Notes: generated from the letters alone by a model not told the origin. A DNA stretch of 64,000 bases from an uncultured delta proteobacterium (GCA_963847445.1 CAWJZV010000008.1:112432-176431); one strand, 5' to 3'; positions 50,361-64,000 are shown, counted from the stretch's first letter. Program-made: numbers and translations.

Positions 50361-53300
50361 TCAAGATTGGCCGACAAAGTAGCGCTCGTAGCAGGTGCGG
50401 ATCCGTTCGCGGCGCAGTTGGTAGTCACGCAACAGCTTTTGCCCGGAGTGTCCCGCACGCTTTGAACTGGCATTCTTCGGCTTGCTGTAACCGAGTGCCT
50501 GGGCGATGCCGTCGAGCCTGCCGGGCTCGGCATCGAAGGCGTCAATCGATTGGTCGCGTTCGAGGCGCAACCGGTGATCGAGCTGGCGCAAGAAAAGATA
50601 GCCGTCGGCGAGCAGCCGGTACTCCTGCGGCTTCAAGATCTTCGCGGCAGCGAGCGCTTTCAGCGCGGCCAGTGTTTCGCGCTGCCGCAAACCGGCCAGG
50701 CGATGACCATGGGCGAGTTGCAGCATTTGCGTTAGGAACTCGATGTCGACCAGCCCGCCGCGGCCCTTCTTGAGATTGAATCTAGATTCATCTTCGCCGG
50801 CGAGCTCGCGCTCCATGCGCATGCGCAAATGATGAATCTCGCCGACGCCTTCCTGGGTGAGGCCAGCGACATAGGCGCATTGTTCGATGACGTGCTCGAC
50901 CGCTCTGCCGAGGGCGGCGTCGCCGGCGATGAAGCGGGTTTTGATCAAGGCTTGGCGCTCCCATAGTTGCGCGGTACTTTTGTGATACTCGCGATAGGCG
51001 TCAAGGGAACAGACCACCGGGCCGGCCTTACCGGACGGGCGCAGCTGCATGTCGATCTTGTAGGCGATACCTTCCTCGGTGGGCGCCGACAGGTAGGTCG
51101 GCAAGCGCTGGCCAATGCGCACGTAGAATTCATGGGCCGGTAATCGACCCTGGCTACCGCCACGGGTTTGCGCGTCATCCGCCGCGTCGTAGATGAAGAC
51201 CAGATCCAAATCGGAATTGTAATCGATCTCCCGCGCGCCGATCTTGCCGCCGCCAATGACGGCGAAATGACCGTTGGCAACGGCGCCGAATTTTTCGCTT
51301 AACTCTGCCAAGGCGAGATCGAGGGCTGCCTGTAAGCAGGCCTCGGCGAGATCGGAGAGTTGCCGCAGCACGGTTAAGAATTCGCTTGAGCCGCCGAGAT
51401 CGTGCAGGCCGATGCGGATGAATTCTTCATTCTTATAACGGCGCAGCACATTGAGCTTGCCTTCAATGTCGTCGGCTGCGTCCAGGTTGTGGCGCAGTTC
51501 GGCGAGCATGGCGTCTTTCGATTTGTCGATGCGCGTCAGATCGACACGAATCAAGGTGTCGATGAGCTCTGGACGGTTGAGAAACAGATCGGTGAGAAAC
51601 TGGCTATCGGCGAACAAAGTGATCAACAGCCGCATGGTTTCGGGCTTCTCCGCTAACAGCGTCAGAAAGCCGGTGCGCCCGCCGATGCGGTGGCTGAAAT
51701 TGGCGAGATTGAACAACGCTTGATCGGGCGCGCCGGACTTGGCGATCTCGGCGATCAACGCCGGGCCCAGGCTGCGCATGACTTTCAAGCGTTTCGGGCT
51801 TGGCGGCGAATAGATTTCGCCGTCGCGCACGTCGAGCAGATTTTCATAGGCCTTCGCCGGATCGGTAAAGCCGACGCCGGCCAATTGCTTGGTGATCGAC
51901 CGCCTGATTGTCGAGATCGTTCCAGATCGCCCCCTCGGCACCGGCGCCTTCGCTTTCGATCTCTTTTTGCGCGCTATAAAACAGCCGATCGAAGATGTTG
52001 CGCACGCTGTTGGTATAGCGGTGGTGATCGCGCCAGAACAGTTCCCGTTCGCCGAGCTTGCCTTTGCGTGTGTAGCCCAGGCGCCGCGCGTAGGCTTGCT
52101 CTTCGTCCTTGCCCTCGGGTATCGAGTGGACATGGCCTTCCTGGACGATTTGCACTTTATGCTCGGCTTGGCGAAGAAAACGGTAGGCTGCGGTAAGCTT
52201 GTCGCGCTCTTCATTGGAAATAAATTTCCGTTTGGCGAGTTCGGCAAGCGTCGGCAGGGTGCTCGGCCCGCGCAAACTCGGTTCGTAGCCGCCGTTGACC
52301 AGCTGCAGCGCCTGGGTGAAAAATTCAACCTCGCGGATACCGCCGTAGCCGAGCTTCAAATTGCGCGCTTTGTCGTCGCCGGTGAGCAGTTCATTCTCGA
52401 TGCGTTCCTTCATGTGGCGCAGCTCGTCGACGGTGGTGTAGTCGAGGTAGCGGCGGTAGATAAACGGCTCGAGTCCTTTTAAGAAGTCGCTGCCCAGTTC
52501 GATTGCGCCGGCCACCGGCCGGGCTTTGATCATCGCCGCCCGTTCCCAGCACTGCCCCCAAGACTCATAATAAAGCATCGCCGAGTCGACCGATTGCACC
52601 AACGGGCCGTTGGCGCCCAACGGACGAAGCCGTAAATCGATGCGAAAGACGAAACCGTCTTCGGTAATATCGCCCATGGCGTGAATGATCTTCTGGCCGA
52701 TGGCGCTGAAAAACTCCCGCGGCCCGACTGTGCCTTTGCTGCCGCCGCTGCTTTCCCCTTCGTCGTTCTCATAGAGAAAGATCACGTCGACATCGGAGCT
52801 GAAGTTAAGCTCGCCGCCGCCCAGTTTGCCCATGCCGAGGACGACGAAGCGATTGGCTTTGGCCGATCCCGGCAAATTGAGTTGGCCGAAATCTTTTTCA
52901 ACTTCCGCCCGGCAGAAACGGTAGGCCGCATCCAGCGAAGCATCGGCCAGCGCGGTCAATTCGCGCACCGTCTCTTCCATCGTCACCGACGGCATCAGAT
53001 CGCGCGCGCCGATGCGCAGGTACTCGCGCTGCTTGTGCCGGCGCAGGGCGGCGCAGAACTCGTCGAATGAAGAGGAGTCCTTAATCGTCGCCTCGAGTTC
53101 TTTGGCATGTTCGGAGACTGACTTCTGTTTCGTCTTGATCTGGCGGGTGAAGAGTACCGGCCAGTGATTACCCTGGCGGATGAGCACGTCGCTCAAAAGG
53201 CGCTGCTGCCGACAAGCGGAAATCAGCGGTGGTCGATCGTCTCCGGGAATTTTGTCGATCGTTTTTGCGCCGGCGCCATCGAGTAGATCGAAGAAGATTG

Positions 53301-53410
53301 GTTTCCGCGAAACGCGGCGAGGGCTCAACTTGATTACCCGTTGGATTGTCTTCCTTTGCGGGACGAAGAAATGTATTTGCCGAGGCTGCGCACGATTCTA
53401 CACTAGTCAT
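50361..53410 (-). CDS. glnE: Glutamine synthetase adenylyltransferase, several frameshifts
   Basis: Two NT domains: LGMGKLGGGELNFSSDVD...RIDLRLRP and GGGKIGAREIDYNSDLD...KIDMQLRP; NLKLGYGGIREVEF and NLKKGRGGLVDIEF. Start uncertain. Confidence 0.93.
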
Positions 53411-54723: not shown

Positions 54724-55141
54724 CGGCCAATTTAGGACCAGTCGATTCTCGCATTATCCATTTCTAGCCCTCTTCGTTAGGATATAGACGCTTGAGACCG
54801 TTCGCCAAGACGAAGTGCGAGCCGATTTGTACACCTGCGAAAGGAGCCGCATCATTTTTACCATACCAGCCTGGGATTGAATTTGCACCAACGAAGGTTT
54901 TGATCCGCGACGCCGGCATATCCAAGAGCTCGAACGTCCAAACATTTAGTCGGGTAACCTTTTGACTACCCACGAGGTAACCGATCGGTTACCATCTGAA
55001 GCACGCCTCTAATCGACTCGTGCCAAAGTCGTCGAAGAATTTCGTCTGCTAAATTCGCCATGGTAGTTTGAACAGGCGCCACCTGATCCGCACTGGCATG
55101 GTAGCTGCACTGTAAGGGAGGACAAGCACAGAGAAAACCAC

Positions 55142-55694
55142 AAATCCGAAATCCGAAGCACAAATTCAAATGATCCAAACAGAAAGCACTAAATCCGAAA
55201 CTCGAAAGCGGCCCCGCGGACCGAAACAAATTCAAAGGACCATAACTGAAAGCACGAAATTCGAAATCCGACACAAATTCGAATGTTCAAAAAAACACTA
55301 AATTCAAAACAACTTCAATTGGGATTCGGTGTTTTGAGATTTTCTTCGGTTTTGAGTTTATTTGGCTGCCAGTTTGTTTCGGATTTCGAGATTCGGATTT
55401 CGGATTTATGTTTTGGTGTGGTTGACACCGAAGTTCATGGTCGACTAGGCTCTCGAACCAGGGCTGACGATCATAAGGAATTCGGATAACTCACCGCGGA
55501 GGCGCTATGGCGCAAAGGGTTCAAGGGGCAAATCCGAAGCACGAAATCCGAAATCCGAAACAAATTCAAATGACTGAAACAAATGCGCAAAACGTTCAAA
55601 ACAGGAGTCGGCGAATTCGAGTTTTGGATTTTCCGGCTTTGAGATTTAGTTGGCCCCGTTTGTTTCGAATTTCGATATTCGGATTTCGGATTTT
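55142..55694. repeat. Two tandem AAATCCG-heptamer palindromic elements
   Basis: A-rich left arms (aaatccgaa...aaacaaattcaaa) and T-rich right arms (tttgtttcg...ttcggatttcggattt) at about 55142-55407 and 55530-55693. Confidence 0.8.
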
Positions 55695-55736
55695 CTTTCA
55701 GCGAAGTTGATAGCGAACTTCATAGTCGACTAGGCT
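55422..55736 (+). promoter_or_regulatory. Duplicated sigma70-like promoter
   Basis: TTGACA-N18-TAGGCT at 55422-55451 and TTGATA-N18-TAGGCT at 55707-55736, 285 bp apart with near-identical spacers. Confidence 0.55.
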
Positions 55737-55828
55737 CTCAGCCCACACATGACGATGCAGCGGTTCGATCGCAGGTCATGTCGTGTTAGTCGGTGAAAGT
55801 ACTTCAGTTAGGACTCAGGAGATCCCAG

Positions 55829-55945
55829 ATGGCCCGAGTTGGGGTTACCAAGAAGAAGCCCCGCGCTACCGCGCTGAGCCGGGTTAAAGACAAGCTGCGC
55901 CGTGTCACCGAGCAGCTTGAGTCGCGCGAGCGAAGTGAGATTTCC
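55829..55945 (+). pseudogene. Remnant N-terminal leader of a GAF-sensor gene
   Basis: AGGAG RBS; MARVGVTKKKPR...DKLRRVTEQLESRE-RSEI, a basic leader plus coiled coil like the one at 57374. Confidence 0.45.
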
Positions 55946-56025
55946 GATGTTGCCAAAGAGGAGCCCGCTGCCCAAAAAGTCTCAGCCGGATCCAAGCTTG
56001 TGACGGCTCATTTAAGGAGATCGCT

Positions 56026-57291
56026 GTGAACGAAAAGATCGATACAGTCATCATCGGCGCTGGCCATGCCGGCCTGACTATGAGTTATTATCTCAGTCAA
56101 CGGGGCCTCGAACATGTGATTGTCGAGCGCGGACGGGTGGGCGAGCGCTGGATCAGCGAACGCTGGGACTCGTTCCATTTTCAATTTCCCAACTCGACCA
56201 TCGAGCTGCCCGGCCATAAATATCAAACCGACGATCCCGACGGCTTTGTGCCGGGCCGGGAAGTCGTTCGCTTTATTCAAGAATACGCCGATTACATAAA
56301 AGCCCCGGTGAGATGCGGTGTCGACGTCGGCGCGTTAGAGAACTGGCGTCAACTTCCGAGCGCTATTTGCTGCGCACGAACGCGGGCGCCATTGAAGCCC
56401 GCAATGTGGTCATTGCCACCGGACAGCGCGAAACGGGTGTCATTCCACCGTTCAGTTCCGATGTGCCGAACGACATCCGCCAGCTGCATTCGAGCGCATA
56501 CCGCAATGCCGGTGAATTGCCGTCCGGCGCCGTTCTGATCGTGGGAAGCGGCGCCTCGGGCTTTCAAATCGCCGAAGATTTGCATCAATACGGCAGACAA
56601 GTCTACCTCTGCGTCGGTCGCCATCGGCCCCTCGCGCGACGCTATCGCCGTCGCGACTACGCTTGGTGGGCGATGGAGATGGGCATGTTTGAGCGACGAC
56701 GCGCGGAAGTCACCGTCGACTTCTGCGCCGGGACCGTTGTTAACCGGCGTCAATGGCGGCTACCAAGCCGACGTGCGGGCGTTGGCTTCGAAGGGAATCG
56801 TTTTGCTGGGACGGTTAAAAGCCGTCACGGGAGCTAGGCTCGCTTTGGCTCCCGACTTGGAAGAGAACCTCGCCAAAGGAGAGGAGTGGCTCGCCAATTA
56901 CAAGAAATCGGTGGACGACTACATCGCAAAAAATAAATTGAATATTCCGGAAGAAAGCCCGCCAGCAAACTTATCCCCAATCCAAAACGGTAGCGCATCA
57001 GCGCCGATTCTTGAGCTGGATCTCAGAGCCGCGGGAATTACTTCGATCATCTGGGCAACGGGATTCGGCAACGACTACGGTTGGTTAAAACTCCCGGTTC
57101 TCGACGAGCGCAGAGAACCTGTGCACGAGCGTGGTGTCACACAGTTACCGGGCATCTATTTTCTCGGTTTGCGCTGGCTGTACAAACAGAAATCAGGTTT
57201 TCTATCTTTTGGCGGCCCGGCGGAAGATGCGGCCTATTTGGCGGAGCAGATCGCAGCGAGACACAACGGAAGTCCGAGTCGGTCTTTTTGA
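56026..57291 (+). CDS. Flavin-containing monooxygenase-like (class B) oxidoreductase, two frameshifts
   Basis: VIIGAGHAG, WISERWDS, VVIATG, QLHSSAYRN, VGSGASG, IIWATGF, GIYFLGL. Confidence 0.9.
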
Positions 57292-57373: not shown

Positions 57374-60300
57374 ATGGCGAGCAAAAAAGGCTCTAAGAGC
57401 GACAGAGTAAAACCGCCCCGAAATGCGGCGAAAAACTCCCCGGTTGAAAATGCAGCAAACGATGGCGGAGCTGCGCCGCCAGCTCGCCGAGTCAGCCAAA
57501 GAGGCGCAGGCTTGCAGGCGTCAGCTCGCCGAAGCGCTGGAACATCAGACGGCCACTTCCGAAGTTCTCGGTATCATCAGCCGGTCACCGACGGACGTGC
57601 AGCCGGTGCTTGATGCTATCGTCGACAGTGCCGCCAGGGTGTGCGGGATCGATGACGTGGTACTGCGACTCGTTGAAGGAAACGCGATGGTTCCGCGGGC
57701 TCATTTTGGGTCCATACCCGTCGGCCGCGTTGAGTCAGTATCGATGAGCTACATTACCGTTGGATGCGCGAGCATGGTACGCACCACGTTCCCGATGTCC
57801 GCGCGCAGAAGGATTTCTCCCTAGGCTTTCGCGGCGTTTGGCGCACTTACTTGGGCGTTCCGCTCCGTCAGCAGGGGGAGCTTATTGGAGCCCTGTACGC
57901 ACGTCGCACCGACGTTTGCCCCTTCACCCCGGCGCAGATCAAGCTACTTGAAACCTTCGCTGACCAAGCAGTGATCGCCATCGAGAACGCGCGACTGTTC
58001 CAAGAACTCACCGAGGCGTTGGAGCAGCAGACTGCTACGAGTGAAATCCTGGGCGTCATCGCCAGCTCGCCGACGGAAATCCAGCCGGTGCTGGACGTAG
58101 TTGCAGAAAACGCCGCGCGGCTGTGCGACGCCAATGATGCACTGATCTATCGTGTCGATGGTGACACCCTTCAGCAAGTGGCGGTATACGGGCTAATACC
58201 ATTCGGGCAAAGGCCGCTACCCTTCACGCGAGGTACGCCCACTGGCCGGGCGGTCATCGACCGCCAAACCATTCACCTGCATGACCTTACGACCGAGCTT
58301 GAAACAGAGTTCCCGGACGCGAAGACCTTACAGCAAGTTTCAGGGACTCGAACTTTTCTTGCGACGCCGTTGCTGCGAGAGGGCATTCCAGTCGGAGCAA
58401 TTGTACTTCGCCGACAAGAAGTCCGTCCTTTTACCGACGGTCATATCGCTCTCCTCAAGACCTTCGCCGACCAGGCCGTGATCGCCATCGAGAACGTGCG
58501 GCTGTTCCAAGAACTCACGGAATCGCTGGAGCAGCAGACGGCGACGAGTGAAATCTTGGGCGTCATCGCCAGCTCGCCGACGGATATTCAGCCGGTGCTG
58601 GACACTGTGATCGCGAATGCCGTGAAATTATCCGGCGCGACGAAGGGACACATTCGTCGACTGGAAAATGGCTTTCTCCATGTAGTCGCGCATTGTAACG
58701 AAACCCCCGAACAGATCGAGCACCTGCGCGCTAATCCGATTCCTCTCACGCGGGCCGTTTCGATTCTTGAAAATCGAGTCGTGCACCGCGACGACCTTCA
58801 AGAACGAAATCGTATGCTTGGTATAGACCCGTTCTTAGGAGCACGCACGCAATTGGGTGTGCCTTTGCAGCGTGAGGGAATAGCAATTGGCAATATCATG
58901 ATTTGGCGGGATGTCGTCGAGCCATTTACCGACCGGCAAATCGATCTGGTCAAAACCTTCGCCGACCAAGCGGTCATCGCCATCGAGAACGTGCGGCTGT
59001 TCAATGAACTGCAGCAGCGCAACCGGATCTCACTGAAGCGCTGGAGCAGCAGACGGCGACGAGCGAGATTCTGGGTGTTATTGCCAGTTCGCCGACCGAT
59101 CTGACACCCGTCCTAGAAACCGTGGCGAGGAACGCGGCGCGGCTTTGTGAAGCGAAGAGCGCACAGGTGTATCGCACCGATGGCGATTTGCTGCGGCTTG
59201 CCGCGAACTACGGGGAACTGCACGCGGGAGAGACCAGGCCGATTGGCCGAGGCACAGTGAGCGGCCGCGCAGTTGTCGAGCGCAAAACCATTCACACCGA
59301 CGAACGCATCCAATATGCAGTGGAGTTCCCCGACAGTAAGAGCGCTAGCGGCGAAACGCGTCTGTCGACGCCGTTGCTGCGCGAAGGTGTTGCCATCGGC
59401 GTAATCGGCATTCGCCGCACCGAACTGCGGCCATTCACCGAAAGCCAAATCAAGCTCCTCGAAACCTTTGCTGAGCAGGCCGTGATCGCCATCGAGAATG
59501 TGCGGCTGTTCAACGAACTCAAGGAGTCGCTGGAGCAGCAGACGGCGACGAGTGAAATCTTGGGCGTCATCGCCAGCTCGCCGACGGATATTCAGCCGGT
59601 GCTGGACACGGTTGCGAAAACGCCGCGAAAGTGTGTGGCGCCAGCGATGCAGTCGATCTGGCTGCGTCGAAGGAGACATGTTCTGCGTACAGCGGCCCAT
59701 GTACGGACCCGTGCCGCATCGCTTGCGGAGTGAATTCGACCACTCGATCGCCAATCGCCCGGCGGGTCGAGCGATGCTCGACCGGGCAGCGATCCACGTT
59801 CCACGACCTGCGGTGCCGTGGTGCAAACGAATTTCCCGACGTCTGCGACACCTATCAGCGAGCCGGGCGCTCGGACAGGCTCTAGCACGTGCCGCTGCTT
59901 CGCGAAGGTGTCGCTATCGGCGTGATCACTATTCGCCGGTTGGAAGTTCGTCCTTTCACCGACAAGCAAATCGCGCTTCTCAAAACCTTCGCCGACCAAG
60001 CGGTCATCGCCATCGAAAACGTGCGCTTGTTCAAGGAACTCGGCGAGCGCAACGCGGAATTGCGCGAGGCGCTGGAGCATCAGACGGCGACGGCCGAGGT
60101 GCTCGGCATCATCAGCCGCTCGCCGACGGACGTGCAGCCGGTGCTCGACGCCATCGTCGAGAGCGCCGCGCGGGTTTGCGGGATCGATGACGTGGTGCTG
60201 CGACTCCGCGAGGGGAACACTTTGGTTTCGCGGGCTCATTTTGGTCCCATACCCGATCGCCCGCGTCGAGATCAGTATTGATGAGCCACAGTTTCGCTGG

Positions 60301-63300
60301 ATGCGCGAGCATGGCACGCTCCACATTCCCGACGTCCGCGCGCAGAACGATTTCCCAACGGTGGGTTCCGTCAGCGGCTGGCGCACCTTCTTAGCCGTTC
60401 CTCTTCGTCAGCAGGGGGAACTCATTGGAGCACTGATCGCACGTCGCACCGAGGTGCGCCCCTTCACCCCGGCGCAGATCAAACTGCTCGAAACCTTCGC
60501 CGACCAGGCGGTGATCGCCATCGAGAACGTGCGGCTGTTCCAAGAACTCAAGGAATCGTTGGAGCAGCAGACGGCGACGAGTGAAATCTTGGGCGTCATC
60601 GCCAGCTCGCCGACGGATATCCAGCCGGTGCTGGATACTGTGGCTGAAAATGCCGCGCGACTTTGCGACGCGACGATGCGTCAGATTTGTCGCGTTGACG
60701 GAGACGGCTTCGAGCGGGTCGCGCACTCATGGACCAATGCCGGTCGTCGGCTGATGAAGACCGTCGATCTATCACCGCGGCATTCCATGCGGGCCGAGCG
60801 ATCATCGACCGGCAAACGATTCATGTTCATGACTGTCGCTGCAGACGCTCGAAGCGGAATTTCCGGACAGCTGAGGTCTTCGCCAAGCGCGACGGCTACT
60901 CGCACCGTGCTTGGCGACGCCGTTGCTGCGTGAAGGTGACTGCGATCGGCGTCATCGTAATTCGCCGCACGGAGGTCCGCCCTTTCACCGACAAGCAGAT
61001 CGCGCTGCTCAAAACCTTCGCCGATCAAGCGGTGATCGCCATCGAGAACGTGCGGCTGTTCAAGGAACTCGGCGAGCGCAACGCGGAATTGCGCGAGGCG
61101 CTGGAGCATCAGACGGCGACGGCCGAGGTGCTCGGCATCATCAGCCGCTCGCCGACCGACGTGCAGCCGGTCCTCGACGCCATCGTCGAGAGCGCCGCGC
61201 GGGTTTGCGGGATCGATGACGTGGTGCTGCGACTCCACGAGGGGAACACTATGGTTTCGCGGGCTCATTTTGGTCCCATACCCATCGGCCGCGTCGAGAT
61301 CAGTATCGATGAGCCACAGTTTCGCTGGATGCGCGAGCATGGCACGCTTCACATTCCCGACGTCCGCGACGCAGAACGATTTCCCAACGTTGGGTTCCGG
61401 CGGCGGCTCGCGCACCTTCTTGGTCGTTCCCCTTCGTCAGCAAGGGGAACTCATTGGAGCACTGATCGCACGTCGCATCGAGGTGCGCCCCTTCACCCCG
61501 GCGCAGATCAAGCTGCTCGAAACCTTCGCCGACCAGGCGGTGATCGCCATCGAGAACGTGCGGCTGTTCCAAGAGCTCAACGAGTCGTTGGAGCAGCAGA
61601 CGGCGACGAGTGAAATCTTGGGCGTCATCGCCAGCTCGCCGACGGATATCCAGCCGGTGCTGGATACCGTTGCCGAGAATGCCGCGCGAGTTATGTGAAG
61701 CGAACGATGCGCTGATTCTATCGTGTCGACGGCGATCGCTTCGAGGCGAGCGGCATCGTACGGACCGCTTCCATGGGAGCCGATCGGCGGAATTGGCCAA
61801 GTACTGAGTCGCGGCATCGTTGCGGGCCGAGCTGTTGTCGACCGGCAGACGATTCATGTTCACGATCTTGGCGGCAGCAGATTCGAAGCGAATTTCCGGA
61901 CGCAAGCCGAGCGATTCACGTATGGGTGATTCGCACGGTGCTCGCTACTCCACTGCTGCGCGAGGGTGTTCCGATCGGAGCAATCATATTCGCCGAACCG
62001 AAGTTCGCCCGTTTACCGACAAACAGATCAGAGCTGCTCAAAACCTTCGCCGACCAGGCGGTGATCGCCATCGAGAACGTGCGCTTGTTCAAAGAACTCG
62101 GCGAGCGCAACGCGGAGTTGCGCGAGGCGCTGGAGCATCAGACGGCGACGGCCGAGGTGCTCGGCATCATCAGCCGCTCGCCGACCGACGTGCAGCCGGT
62201 GCTCGACGCCATCGTCGAGAGCGCGGCGCGGGTTTGCGGGATCGATGACGTGGTGCTGCGACTCCGCGAGGGGAACGCTATGGTTGCGCGGGCTCATTTC
62301 GGTCCCATAGCCGATCTGGCCGCGTCGAGATCAGTATTGATGAGCCACAGTTTCGCTGGATGCGCGAGCATGGCACGCTCCACATTCCCGACGTCCGCGC
62401 GCAGAACGATTTCCCAACGTTGGGTTCCGCCAGCGGCTTGCGCACCTTCTTGGCCGTTCCCCTTCGTCAGCAGGGAGAACTCATTGGAACACTGATCGCA
62501 CGTCGCACCGAGGTGCGCCCCTTCACCCCGGCGCAGATCAAGCTGCTTGAAACCTTCGCCGACCAGGCGGTGATCGCCATCGAGAACGTGCGGCTGTTCC
62601 AAGAACTCAACGAGAGTCGTTGGAGCAGCAGACGGCGACGAGTGAAATCTTGGGCGTCATCGCCAGCTCGCCGACGGATATTCAGCCGGTGCTGGATGTC
62701 GTGGCTGAAAATGCGGCGCGTTTGTGCGACGCGAACGATGCGCAGCATTCGGCGCGTCGACGGCGAACTGCTGCGCACTGTGGCTCATTATGGGACCGAT
62801 GCCCATGACCGCGGGTCGGAGCTGACCGATCGACTCGCGAGCTCAGTCGTCGGCCGAGCAATGGTCGACCGACAGACCATTCACATTCACGACATGTCAG
62901 CCGAAGTCGCGAGCCGAATTTCCGGACTGCGCAGGCTACGGCGAACGGCTGGGCGTTCGCACCGTGCTTGCCACGCCGTTGCTGCGCGAAGGCAGTCGCG
63001 ATCGGAGCGATTCACATTCGCCGAACGGAGGTCCGTCCCTTCACCGACAAGCAAATCGCGCTTGCTCAAAACCTTTGCCGACCAGGCCGTCATCGCCATC
63101 GAGAACGTGCGGCTTGTTCAAGGAATTCGGCGAGCGCAACGCAGAATTGCGCGAGGCGCTGGAGCATCAGACGGCGACGGCCGAGGTGCTCGGCATCATC
63201 AGCCGCTCGCCGACGGACGTGCAGCCGGTGCTCGACGCCATCGTCGAGAGCGCGGCACGGGTTTGCGGGATCGATGACGTGGTGCTGCGACTCCGCGAGG

Positions 63301-64000
63301 GGAACGCTATGGTTCCGCGGGCTCATTTTGGTCCCATACCCATCGGCCGCGTCGAGATCAGTATTGATGAACCACAGTTTCGCTGGATGCGCGAGCATGG
63401 CACGCTCCACATTCCCGACGTCCGCGCGCAGAACGATTTCCCAACGTTGGGTTCCACCGGCGGCTTGCGCACCTTCTTGGCCGTTCCCCTTCGTCAGCAG
63501 GGGGAACTCATTGGAACACTGAACGCACGTCGCACCGAGGTGCGCCCCTTCACCCCGGCGCAGATCAAGCTGCTCGAAACCTTCGCCGACCAGGCGGTGA
63601 TCGCCATCGAGAACGTGCGGCTGTTCCAAGAACTCAAGGAGTCGCTGGAGCAGCAGACTGCGACGAGTGAGATCCTGGGCGTGATCGCCAGCTCGCCGAC
63701 GGATATTCAGCCGGTGCTCGACGCCATCGCCGAGAGCGCGGCTCGGGTGTGCGGGTCCGACGACGCGACGATTCGCCTGCTCGATGGGGATGAGACGTTC
63801 CTGGCGGCGCACTTCGGATCGATACCTCCCAGCGCGCCGAGGCGGCGGAGCTTGCAATGGCGCTTGGTTGGCAATGAGGCTTTGCTCCAGCGCAGGACAA
63901 TTCACATTCCAGACGTTCAGGCGGAAGCAGAGAGATTTCCGGACAGCTCATACATGGGGCGCGGTATTCGAACCTTGCTCGTCACGCCGCTGCTTCGCGA
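57374..64000 (+). CDS. Giant poly-GAF sensor protein (at least 13 GAF domains; many frameshifts; runs off window)
   Basis: Recurrent linker LL(E/K)[19 protein letters not shown](Q/H)QTAT(S/A)E(I/V)LG.I..SPTD(I/V)QPVLD near 57540, 58020, 58530, 59040, 59530, 60070, 60560, 61100, 61590, 62130, 62620, 63160 and 63645. Confidence 0.88.

Follow-up and report, generated by a model that had tools for sequence, protein, structure and literature searches.

The window analysed here (64,000 nucleotides from an uncultured delta proteobacterium) ends in the front part of one giant sensor gene, which comprises 13 GAF units arranged from position 57374 on in the order A, b, b, b, b, A, b, A, b, A, b, A, b. 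Taken together, the analyses described below make it probable that this is a giant GAF gene whose modules are swapped by homologous recombination and that the present state of its A and B units in the window is a consensus of mismatched reads. Base 64000 of the window is also the last base of contig C8 of the genome (G000), and the array is thus cut by the contig end. Both A and b units of the window scored above the Pfam cut-off (PF01590/PF13185), and judged from the kinase ends of its relatives the gene would code for a soluble histidine kinase. The features of the array region are as follows.

57374–57490, plus strand: gene start codon and basic, K/R-rich leader into a coiled coil; extra base at 57455
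57491–58000, plus strand: unit 1, diverged A-type GAF, ~81% to the consensus; one frame break
58001–59002, plus strand: units 2 and 3, b-type GAFs, in frame; Pfam match
58850–59430, plus strand: ~580-bp tract from the end of unit 3 through unit 4 up to its last helix, 99% to G014:C11
59003–59511, plus strand: unit 4, b-type GAF lacking one base after 59025
59512–60032, plus strand: unit 5, b-type GAF; at least 3 frameshifts
60033–60540, plus strand: unit 6, A-type GAF, consensus-like; entry linker longer by 7 residues; 1 frameshift
60541–61061, plus strand: unit 7, b-type GAF with 6 or more frameshifts and a linker 92% identical to the b consensus
61062–61569, plus strand: unit 8, A-type GAF, consensus-like; 1 frameshift
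61570–62090, plus strand: unit 9, b-type GAF; at least 6 frameshifts
62091–62599, plus strand: unit 10, A-type GAF, consensus-like; at least 1 frameshift
62600–63119, plus strand: unit 11, b-type GAF; at least 5 frameshifts
63120–63626, plus strand: unit 12, A-type GAF, in frame, PF01590; 96% to the consensus of 41 short-read-named copies
63627–64000, plus strand: unit 13, in-frame b-type GAF, truncated at the contig end

The A-start motif was found at 60071, 61100, 62129, and 63158, exactly 1029 bp apart, as the initial annotation had reported, but the periods do not correspond to 343 codons each: they consist of 508 + 521 or 509 + 520 bases with several frame breaks. The diverged A copy that had been said to open the gene (57491–58000) is indeed present and is ~80% identical to the other A copies of the window; it is followed by four b units (58001–60032) and then by strict A/b alternation up to the contig end. 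The leader of the gene also occurs in the database proteins P0110 and P0121–P0125, and 76 residues of unit 1 are identical to the 89-residue unit-1 core of P0122. A 3′ continuation with the kinase end of the window gene was sought on the other contigs of the assembly and none was found, and the exact unit count of the array could be wrong.

Several features upstream of the array deserve mention. A GlnE-like adenylyltransferase gene (50361–53328, minus strand; recognised by translation) is spread over at least two frames, which reflects the background indel errors of the assembly. The intergenic sequence at 55127–55756 holds short repeats, both direct and inverted, in two clusters separated by 286 bp; similar intergenic repeats adjoin genes coding for four-helix-bundle (TIGR02436) and PD-(D/E)XK proteins near other arrays. 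A 66-residue ORF (55829–56029, plus strand) begins with 35 residues of a free-standing GAF-kinase leader that has no GAF behind it (65% to residues 1–37 of P0021) and is possibly the remnant of a collapsed array. Between this ORF and the array lies a gene for an FAD-dependent oxidoreductase (56026–57291, plus strand; two frame breaks), which is found upstream of an array in G019 too. Among 30 same-genus genomes, G019 was the only one with the window's upstream locus in which gene and array occurred together, and its b units had no match to those of the window.

The A core is present in 15 copies in the G000 genome, which is 92% complete, and all of them reside in four long arrays on the contigs C8, C9 (two arrays), and C27. 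The other three large arrays each possess their own leader and a histidine kinase end (read from translations) with C-terminal HisKA and HATPase_c domains, so that the suggestion of the GAF units serving as a cassette reservoir for paralogous kinases is not supported; two of the three are followed by CheY-like and receiver-adenylate-cyclase (REC, REC-cyclase) genes. Like these sister arrays, relatives have the C-terminal output domain that the initial annotation expected beyond the window and end in HisKA-HATPase: the kinase H-box was detected in 74 of the 120 best long database matches. One of the proteins, P0054, combines 9 GAF domains with HisKA and HATPase, and no curated NCBIfam family covers its whole length. 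Homologues that have names are mostly labelled Candidatus Binatia. A-type DNA was detected in 23 of 61 genomes searched (own genome included), and the A subtype has a narrow distribution: it is present in 21 of 36 same-family genomes, whereas two further families of the order yielded 1 of 5 and 0 of 19.

In total, 40 regions were fetched from 16 relatives. Arrays of the GAF family contain 7–24 units; the longest array seen (L019, G029:C14) has 24 GAF units, including 9 A. Intact alternating arrays were found in related genomes, being in frame between all unit anchors tested in G006 (16 units), G017, G015, and G033 and nearly so in G012 (25 of 26), whereas only 9 of 42 units were in frame in G000 (merged double units left out). 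The intact 16-GAF array of G006 supports the earlier proposal of one giant receptor. The periods in intact relatives are variable (1005–1020).

The alternation of the two module classes is real and exceeds chance, in agreement with what had been described for the window alone. GAF units of the 120 best of 2,979 long database matches fell into two distinct classes, A and b; ranking by total score has enriched this selection in A. Compared with permutations that kept the composition of each protein, A-A neighbours were depleted in this set (11 vs. 104.5 expected) and AbA triplets enriched (211 vs. 69.5). The same was true for 48 genome arrays with 462 units (AA, 6 vs. 30.7 expected; AbA, 69 vs. 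21.5). The joins obey a linker rule as well: 344 of 362 b-to-A joins have a linker with 7 extra residues, 328 of 395 A-to-b joins have the short one (40 unparsed), and A was the last GAF in none of the 74 kinase-bearing proteins. Selection or type-specific crossover may keep A from adjoining another A or the kinase.

Comparisons of sequence support the view that GAF modules are exchanged singly, with breakpoints at or near the conserved inter-GAF helices. Intact b cores that are at least 95% identical had different neighbours in 37 of 50 comparisons, and at 90–95% identity this applied to 83 of 86. Intact A cores with at least 95% identity differed in their neighbour in 35 of 47 comparisons; the A modules are thus diverse and swapped too, so that the notion of A as a constant spacer is not supported. 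Of 78 database protein pairs sharing a module at 95% identity or more, 54 had only one module in common, the identity being lost in either direction no more than 135 residues from the core, whereas 18 shared several modules and 6 were unclassed. The one-module pairs involve 55 proteins and comprise 20 ENA-ENA, 13 JGI-JGI, and 21 mixed pairs. In arrays most of whose units are intact, exact matches across the junctions were short, with medians not above 20 nt and none longer than 70 nt. Wholesale short-read chimeras are therefore unlikely, and some chimeras may remain; some one-module tracts of short-read proteins could be such chimeric joins. Hence, from the earlier idea of shuffling by recombination at long, near-identical linker DNA, the swapping near inter-GAF helices is retained but not the long stretches of near-identical DNA.

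Within the window array, the tract at 58850–59430 is shared with an array of another species (G014:C11) that is orthologous to the C9 locus of G000 and so non-orthologous to the window array, and the orthologous flanks of G000 and G014 are only ~82% identical. This tract had no match in the other relatives (89 genomes, 8 candidates scored per genome). Unit 3 of the window is 88% identical to unit 6 of G014:C11. Proteins that share the leader of the window gene differ in their unit orders, and orthologous arrays of G000 and G003 have common ends and a different middle. At fourfold sites the b cores are saturated (0.29 vs. 0.28 expected), whereas the linkers (0.39–0.50) are unsaturated, as repeated exchange at linkers would produce. 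Homologous recombination in or near the conserved inter-GAF helices likely swaps single modules between arrays, strains, and species, and we infer that ordinary homologous recombination is the simplest driver of the swaps. A separate observation concerns two adjacent b modules at G000:C9:141939-142946, which are 88.6% identical and represent a recent tandem duplication; modules of this type recur at many different positions in 20 proteins or arrays.

The near-identity of the A copies has to be regarded differently. The four consensus-like A copies of the window are 94–96% identical to each other over the core, as the initial annotation had stated, but this near-identity is probably not biological: two A cores of the same intact protein are typically 60% identical (median) and never more than 76%, and none of 355 pairs reaches 85%. 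None of the 379 A units of the 120 best proteins was more than 83.5% identical to the window's copy. The four copies are, however, 95–96% identical to the consensus of 78 copies from 13 other genomes and equally close (95–96%) to a consensus built from 41 intact copies of short-read-named records, while these 41 copies themselves reach a median of 82% and a maximum of ~92%. For 131 A copies, closeness to the consensus fell as the share of intact units rose (rho −0.50; kin not independent). In loci that were classed as short-read or other by contig name and that overlap the earlier locus set, 144 of 145 units were in frame in short-read-named records vs. 150 of 317 in the others. Frameshifts do cluster in B, as had been noticed: at least 20 were counted in 2,083 bp of the b units 5, 7, 9, and 11 vs. 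3 in 2,032 bp of the A units 6, 8, 10, and 12, and all control units (29/29) had 0 frameshifts. This amounts to ~10 frameshifts per kb in b cores vs. ~0.7 elsewhere, a rough comparison since the latter figure (9 in 13.4 kb of 14 non-array genes, 5 rows inside arrays having been dropped) was obtained by a different method.

Near-identity of A and of the linkers was encountered almost only in frameshifted long contigs. Among the best 120 of 1,649 short matches, 42 fragments (counted by hand, including 3 of the window itself) were at least 90% identical; their contigs all measured at least 4.3 kb and none was from JGI. In five near-identical clusters, all 62 listed members were ENA fragments of 56–372 residues on contigs of at least 3.8 kb, and an exact 48-mer was found in the metagenome collection at 4 loci, all of them frameshifted arrays of one assembly. 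The b entry linkers (units 5, 7, 9, and 11) likewise had a column identity of 0.92–0.93 to the b consensus, compared to a maximum of 0.87 in 51 intact units, in a test whose free gaps may inflate the values for the cores. An nhmmer-based test of the same consensus-likeness ran the opposite way (broken units, 151 bits; intact units, 167 bits), probably because indels are penalised. In the C27 array one A is flanked by b modules 95.5% and 96.6% identical to those of G004; of the 30 sites defining the A allele common to three orthologous arrays, this copy has 13 in the derived and 15 in the consensus state. The erased sites show some clustering (runs z = −2.3), a pattern that could likewise stem from gene conversion. 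A simulated majority vote over 9–19 real alleles yielded sequences 95–97% identical to the consensus and 93–96% identical to each other, and a column-deviation test did not separate the window's A from near-consensus intact copies (6.9% vs. 6.2%, p = 1). Polishing consists of read remapping and recalling of the consensus (PMC6868369), and mismatched reads would have produced the consensus here; the literature found on polishing and repeats consisted of general papers only. Matches in public short-read contigs, which like the holes and summed depths of their coverage were not counted as evidence, comprised pieces of up to ~1.3 kb on the flanks and up to 520 nt on units 1–4 from strains ~98% identical, pieces listed on units 5–12 of at most 78 nt at 96% likeness, contigs from other samples covering 59044–59559 in the unit 4 region at 98%, and a contig of run X7 matching 63768–64000 in unit 13 with 1 difference; the cover of units 2–4 differed between public runs. 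We regard it as likely, with good confidence, that the near-identical A copies and their exact 1029-bp spacing are an assembly artefact in the form of a mixed-read consensus. This is likely rather than proven because a few intact A copies reach ~92%. Concerted evolution within genomes was considered too and rejected, as A modules across the arrays of one genome are hardly more similar (0.83) than between genomes (0.80) and form a star-shaped tree.

The main alternative is that the near-identity of A is real, duplication or gene conversion having recently re-seeded the lineage from a young, ancestral-like A, and that the repeats then caused polishing errors in B. Intact copies at 91.5–92% to the consensus exist (3 of the 41 from short-read-named records), and the best case against an artefact is an intact 14-unit array in such a record (L060) with two A copies at ~92% to the consensus and two near-duplicate b modules. 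Moreover, consensus-like A copies are shared by G000, G003, and G027, the presence of diverged A copies at array edges would be expected from concerted evolution no less than from an artefact, and near-identical arrays would be missed by short-read assemblies, which are biased against near-identical repeats. Conversion should, however, homogenise the copies to the allele of one lineage, whereas the window copies match a cross-genus consensus and few lineage-specific shared changes exist in the A core. Unique B cores would also place long reads properly, so that identical A units alone should not garble B; short-contig fragments with at least 90% identity were not found among the matches listed, and the exact 48-mer is confined to broken long contigs. 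Re-seeding is thus rather unlikely. Even less can be said for a concatenation by the assembler of many short paralogous GAF-kinase genes sharing A, which had been raised as a caveat. The contig end within the array, the heavy frameshifting, and the fact that no matched short-read contig spans a period would fit such an event, and the assembly is indeed damaged in the array. Yet the other A copies of G000 are located in three other long arrays and not in short genes, and relatives possess intact alternating arrays of 10–16 units, with nearly all units in frame in the short-read-named records. The B units of the window, which according to the caveat should map to separate short GAF-kinase genes, had no match above 75% in the sister arrays or in the arrays fetched from relatives. 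Concatenation is accordingly very improbable, and the damage in the window array looks like a mixed-read consensus.

Just as improbable is an involvement of a dedicated diversifier, such as a diversity-generating retroelement (DGR), an integron-like recombinase, or silent-cassette conversion, as driver of the variation. The star-shaped A tree, the focusing of variation on few codons, several of which are pocket positions, and the four-helix-bundle genes near some arrays would be compatible with such a system. The codon-focused variation suggested a DGR in particular, which was rejected because the reverse transcriptases (RTs) are of the group II type and adenine bias is lacking in the variation of A, the substitution rates from the consensus being similar for A, C, G, and T. 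The only PF00078 (RT) locus in the 92% complete genome matches a group II maturase best, as does an RT beside the array of a relative with a group II intron maturase; group II intron maturase genes are located at L001 (G000:C45:369-2004) and L029:231-1298, the second ~1 kb from a GAF kinase operon. No integrase or recombinase was detected in the 68 of 115 flank ORF clusters scanned (22 loci), 6 of 6 linkers folded no better than shuffled sequences when inspected for attC-like hairpins (z −0.2 to 0.7), and inverted repeats of at least 30 nt were absent from the array. In silent-cassette conversion of the vlsE or pilS type, partial cassettes without start or output feed one expressed locus. No template or silent A copy was found, as all 15 A-core copies of G000 are in arrays, and none of the four large G000 arrays is a silent cassette (besides these, small clusters of 1–2 units occur in C9, C30, and C42): all four have the leader and three the kinase end.

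AlphaFold modelled an intact A-b pair of G006 (pLDDT 87, pTM 0.62) as two full GAF folds on one 46-residue helix, with a short lid helix on A. The A module is thus predicted to be a complete, short-lidded GAF that is joined to the next GAF by this single helix. Its most variable codons include two alternating positions in the last strand, one of which aligns with the tyrosine of the DosS GTLY motif; by hand counting this residue is Tyr171 of the pocket (PMC4082495). Since some of the residues that vary most lie at positions predicted to belong to the pocket, A probably also senses and is less likely to be a mere spacer. The protein is presumably a parallel dimer, whose helical spine could sum small-molecule binding in many pockets and set the kinase activity, and the signal would pass to the CheY-like and receiver-adenylate-cyclase genes located 3′ of the sister arrays.

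Multi-GAF kinases of the array family are abundant in uncultured soil bacteria and unstudied. It is conceivable, albeit doubtful, that they form a population-scale combinatorial receptor library, in which a given array position would be occupied by different GAF modules in coexisting cells of one Binatia species; recombination of one module at a time would supply these modules from a pool common to the genus while the A/b grammar keeps them in register. The smeared consensus of the window would then be the footprint of live variation, because such a smear needs about 10 or more different alleles piled on each A. If the transfer of single modules to other arrays and species outpaces their divergence by 5%, this would constitute a natural plug-and-play sensor library, which would offer a route to study the gain of signal inputs and could supply biosensor design with modules. 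Together with the near-absence of A beside A and its absence before the kinase, the linker rule (7 additional residues into A, short out of it) is a testable statement on signal passage along the helical spine. A practical warning is that GAF arrays seem to be rewritten towards the family consensus in long-read metagenome assemblies; the result looks like gene conversion, and consensus fragments accumulate in protein databases.

The literature searched, which lay mostly outside subscription journals, yielded no description of GAF arrays in Binatia, of the A/b rule, or of GAF modules that alternate or are swapped. Among known structures, the tandem GAFs of CyaB2 (1ykd) and PDE2A/PDE5 (3ibj, 1mc0, 3lfv) came closest in fold to the predicted A-b pair (E 1e-16 to 1e-14). 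They resemble it in having GAFs joined by one long helix but differ from the arrays in their low identity (14–17%), in possessing two GAFs instead of many, and in their cyclase or phosphodiesterase output. NKFDE is the cyclic-nucleotide motif of cNMP-binding tandem GAFs, and it was absent from the A and b consensus on inspection. The best PDB sequence match was GAF-A of DosS/DevS (2w3d; E 3e-5), which extends over the last two strands and the helix. In the haem-binding GAF of DosS, the proximal His149 precedes the penultimate strand, whereas by hand counting the A consensus has no conserved His there; DosS/DevS also has two GAFs only and no modular array. The multi-GAF HisKA kinases of soil bacteria, annotated as "GAF domain-containing protein" in Ca. 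Binatia, share the linker, the kinase end, and the REC and REC-cyclase neighbours, but the A subtype is restricted to a narrow range of genomes.

Every part of the array is a known domain, and domain shuffling in expanded kinase families is established: paralogous kinases with reshuffled N-terminal sensor domains occur for example in Desulfovibrio (Alm, Huang and Arkin 2006, PMC1630713). The arrays are like these expansions in consisting of paralogous kinases with shuffled sensor parts. In the kinase expansions described in PMC1630713, domain types are shuffled between paralogs, whereas here one domain family is arranged in arrays of 7–24 units with two-class alternation, and modules that are still 95–100% identical have already changed neighbours, once across species.
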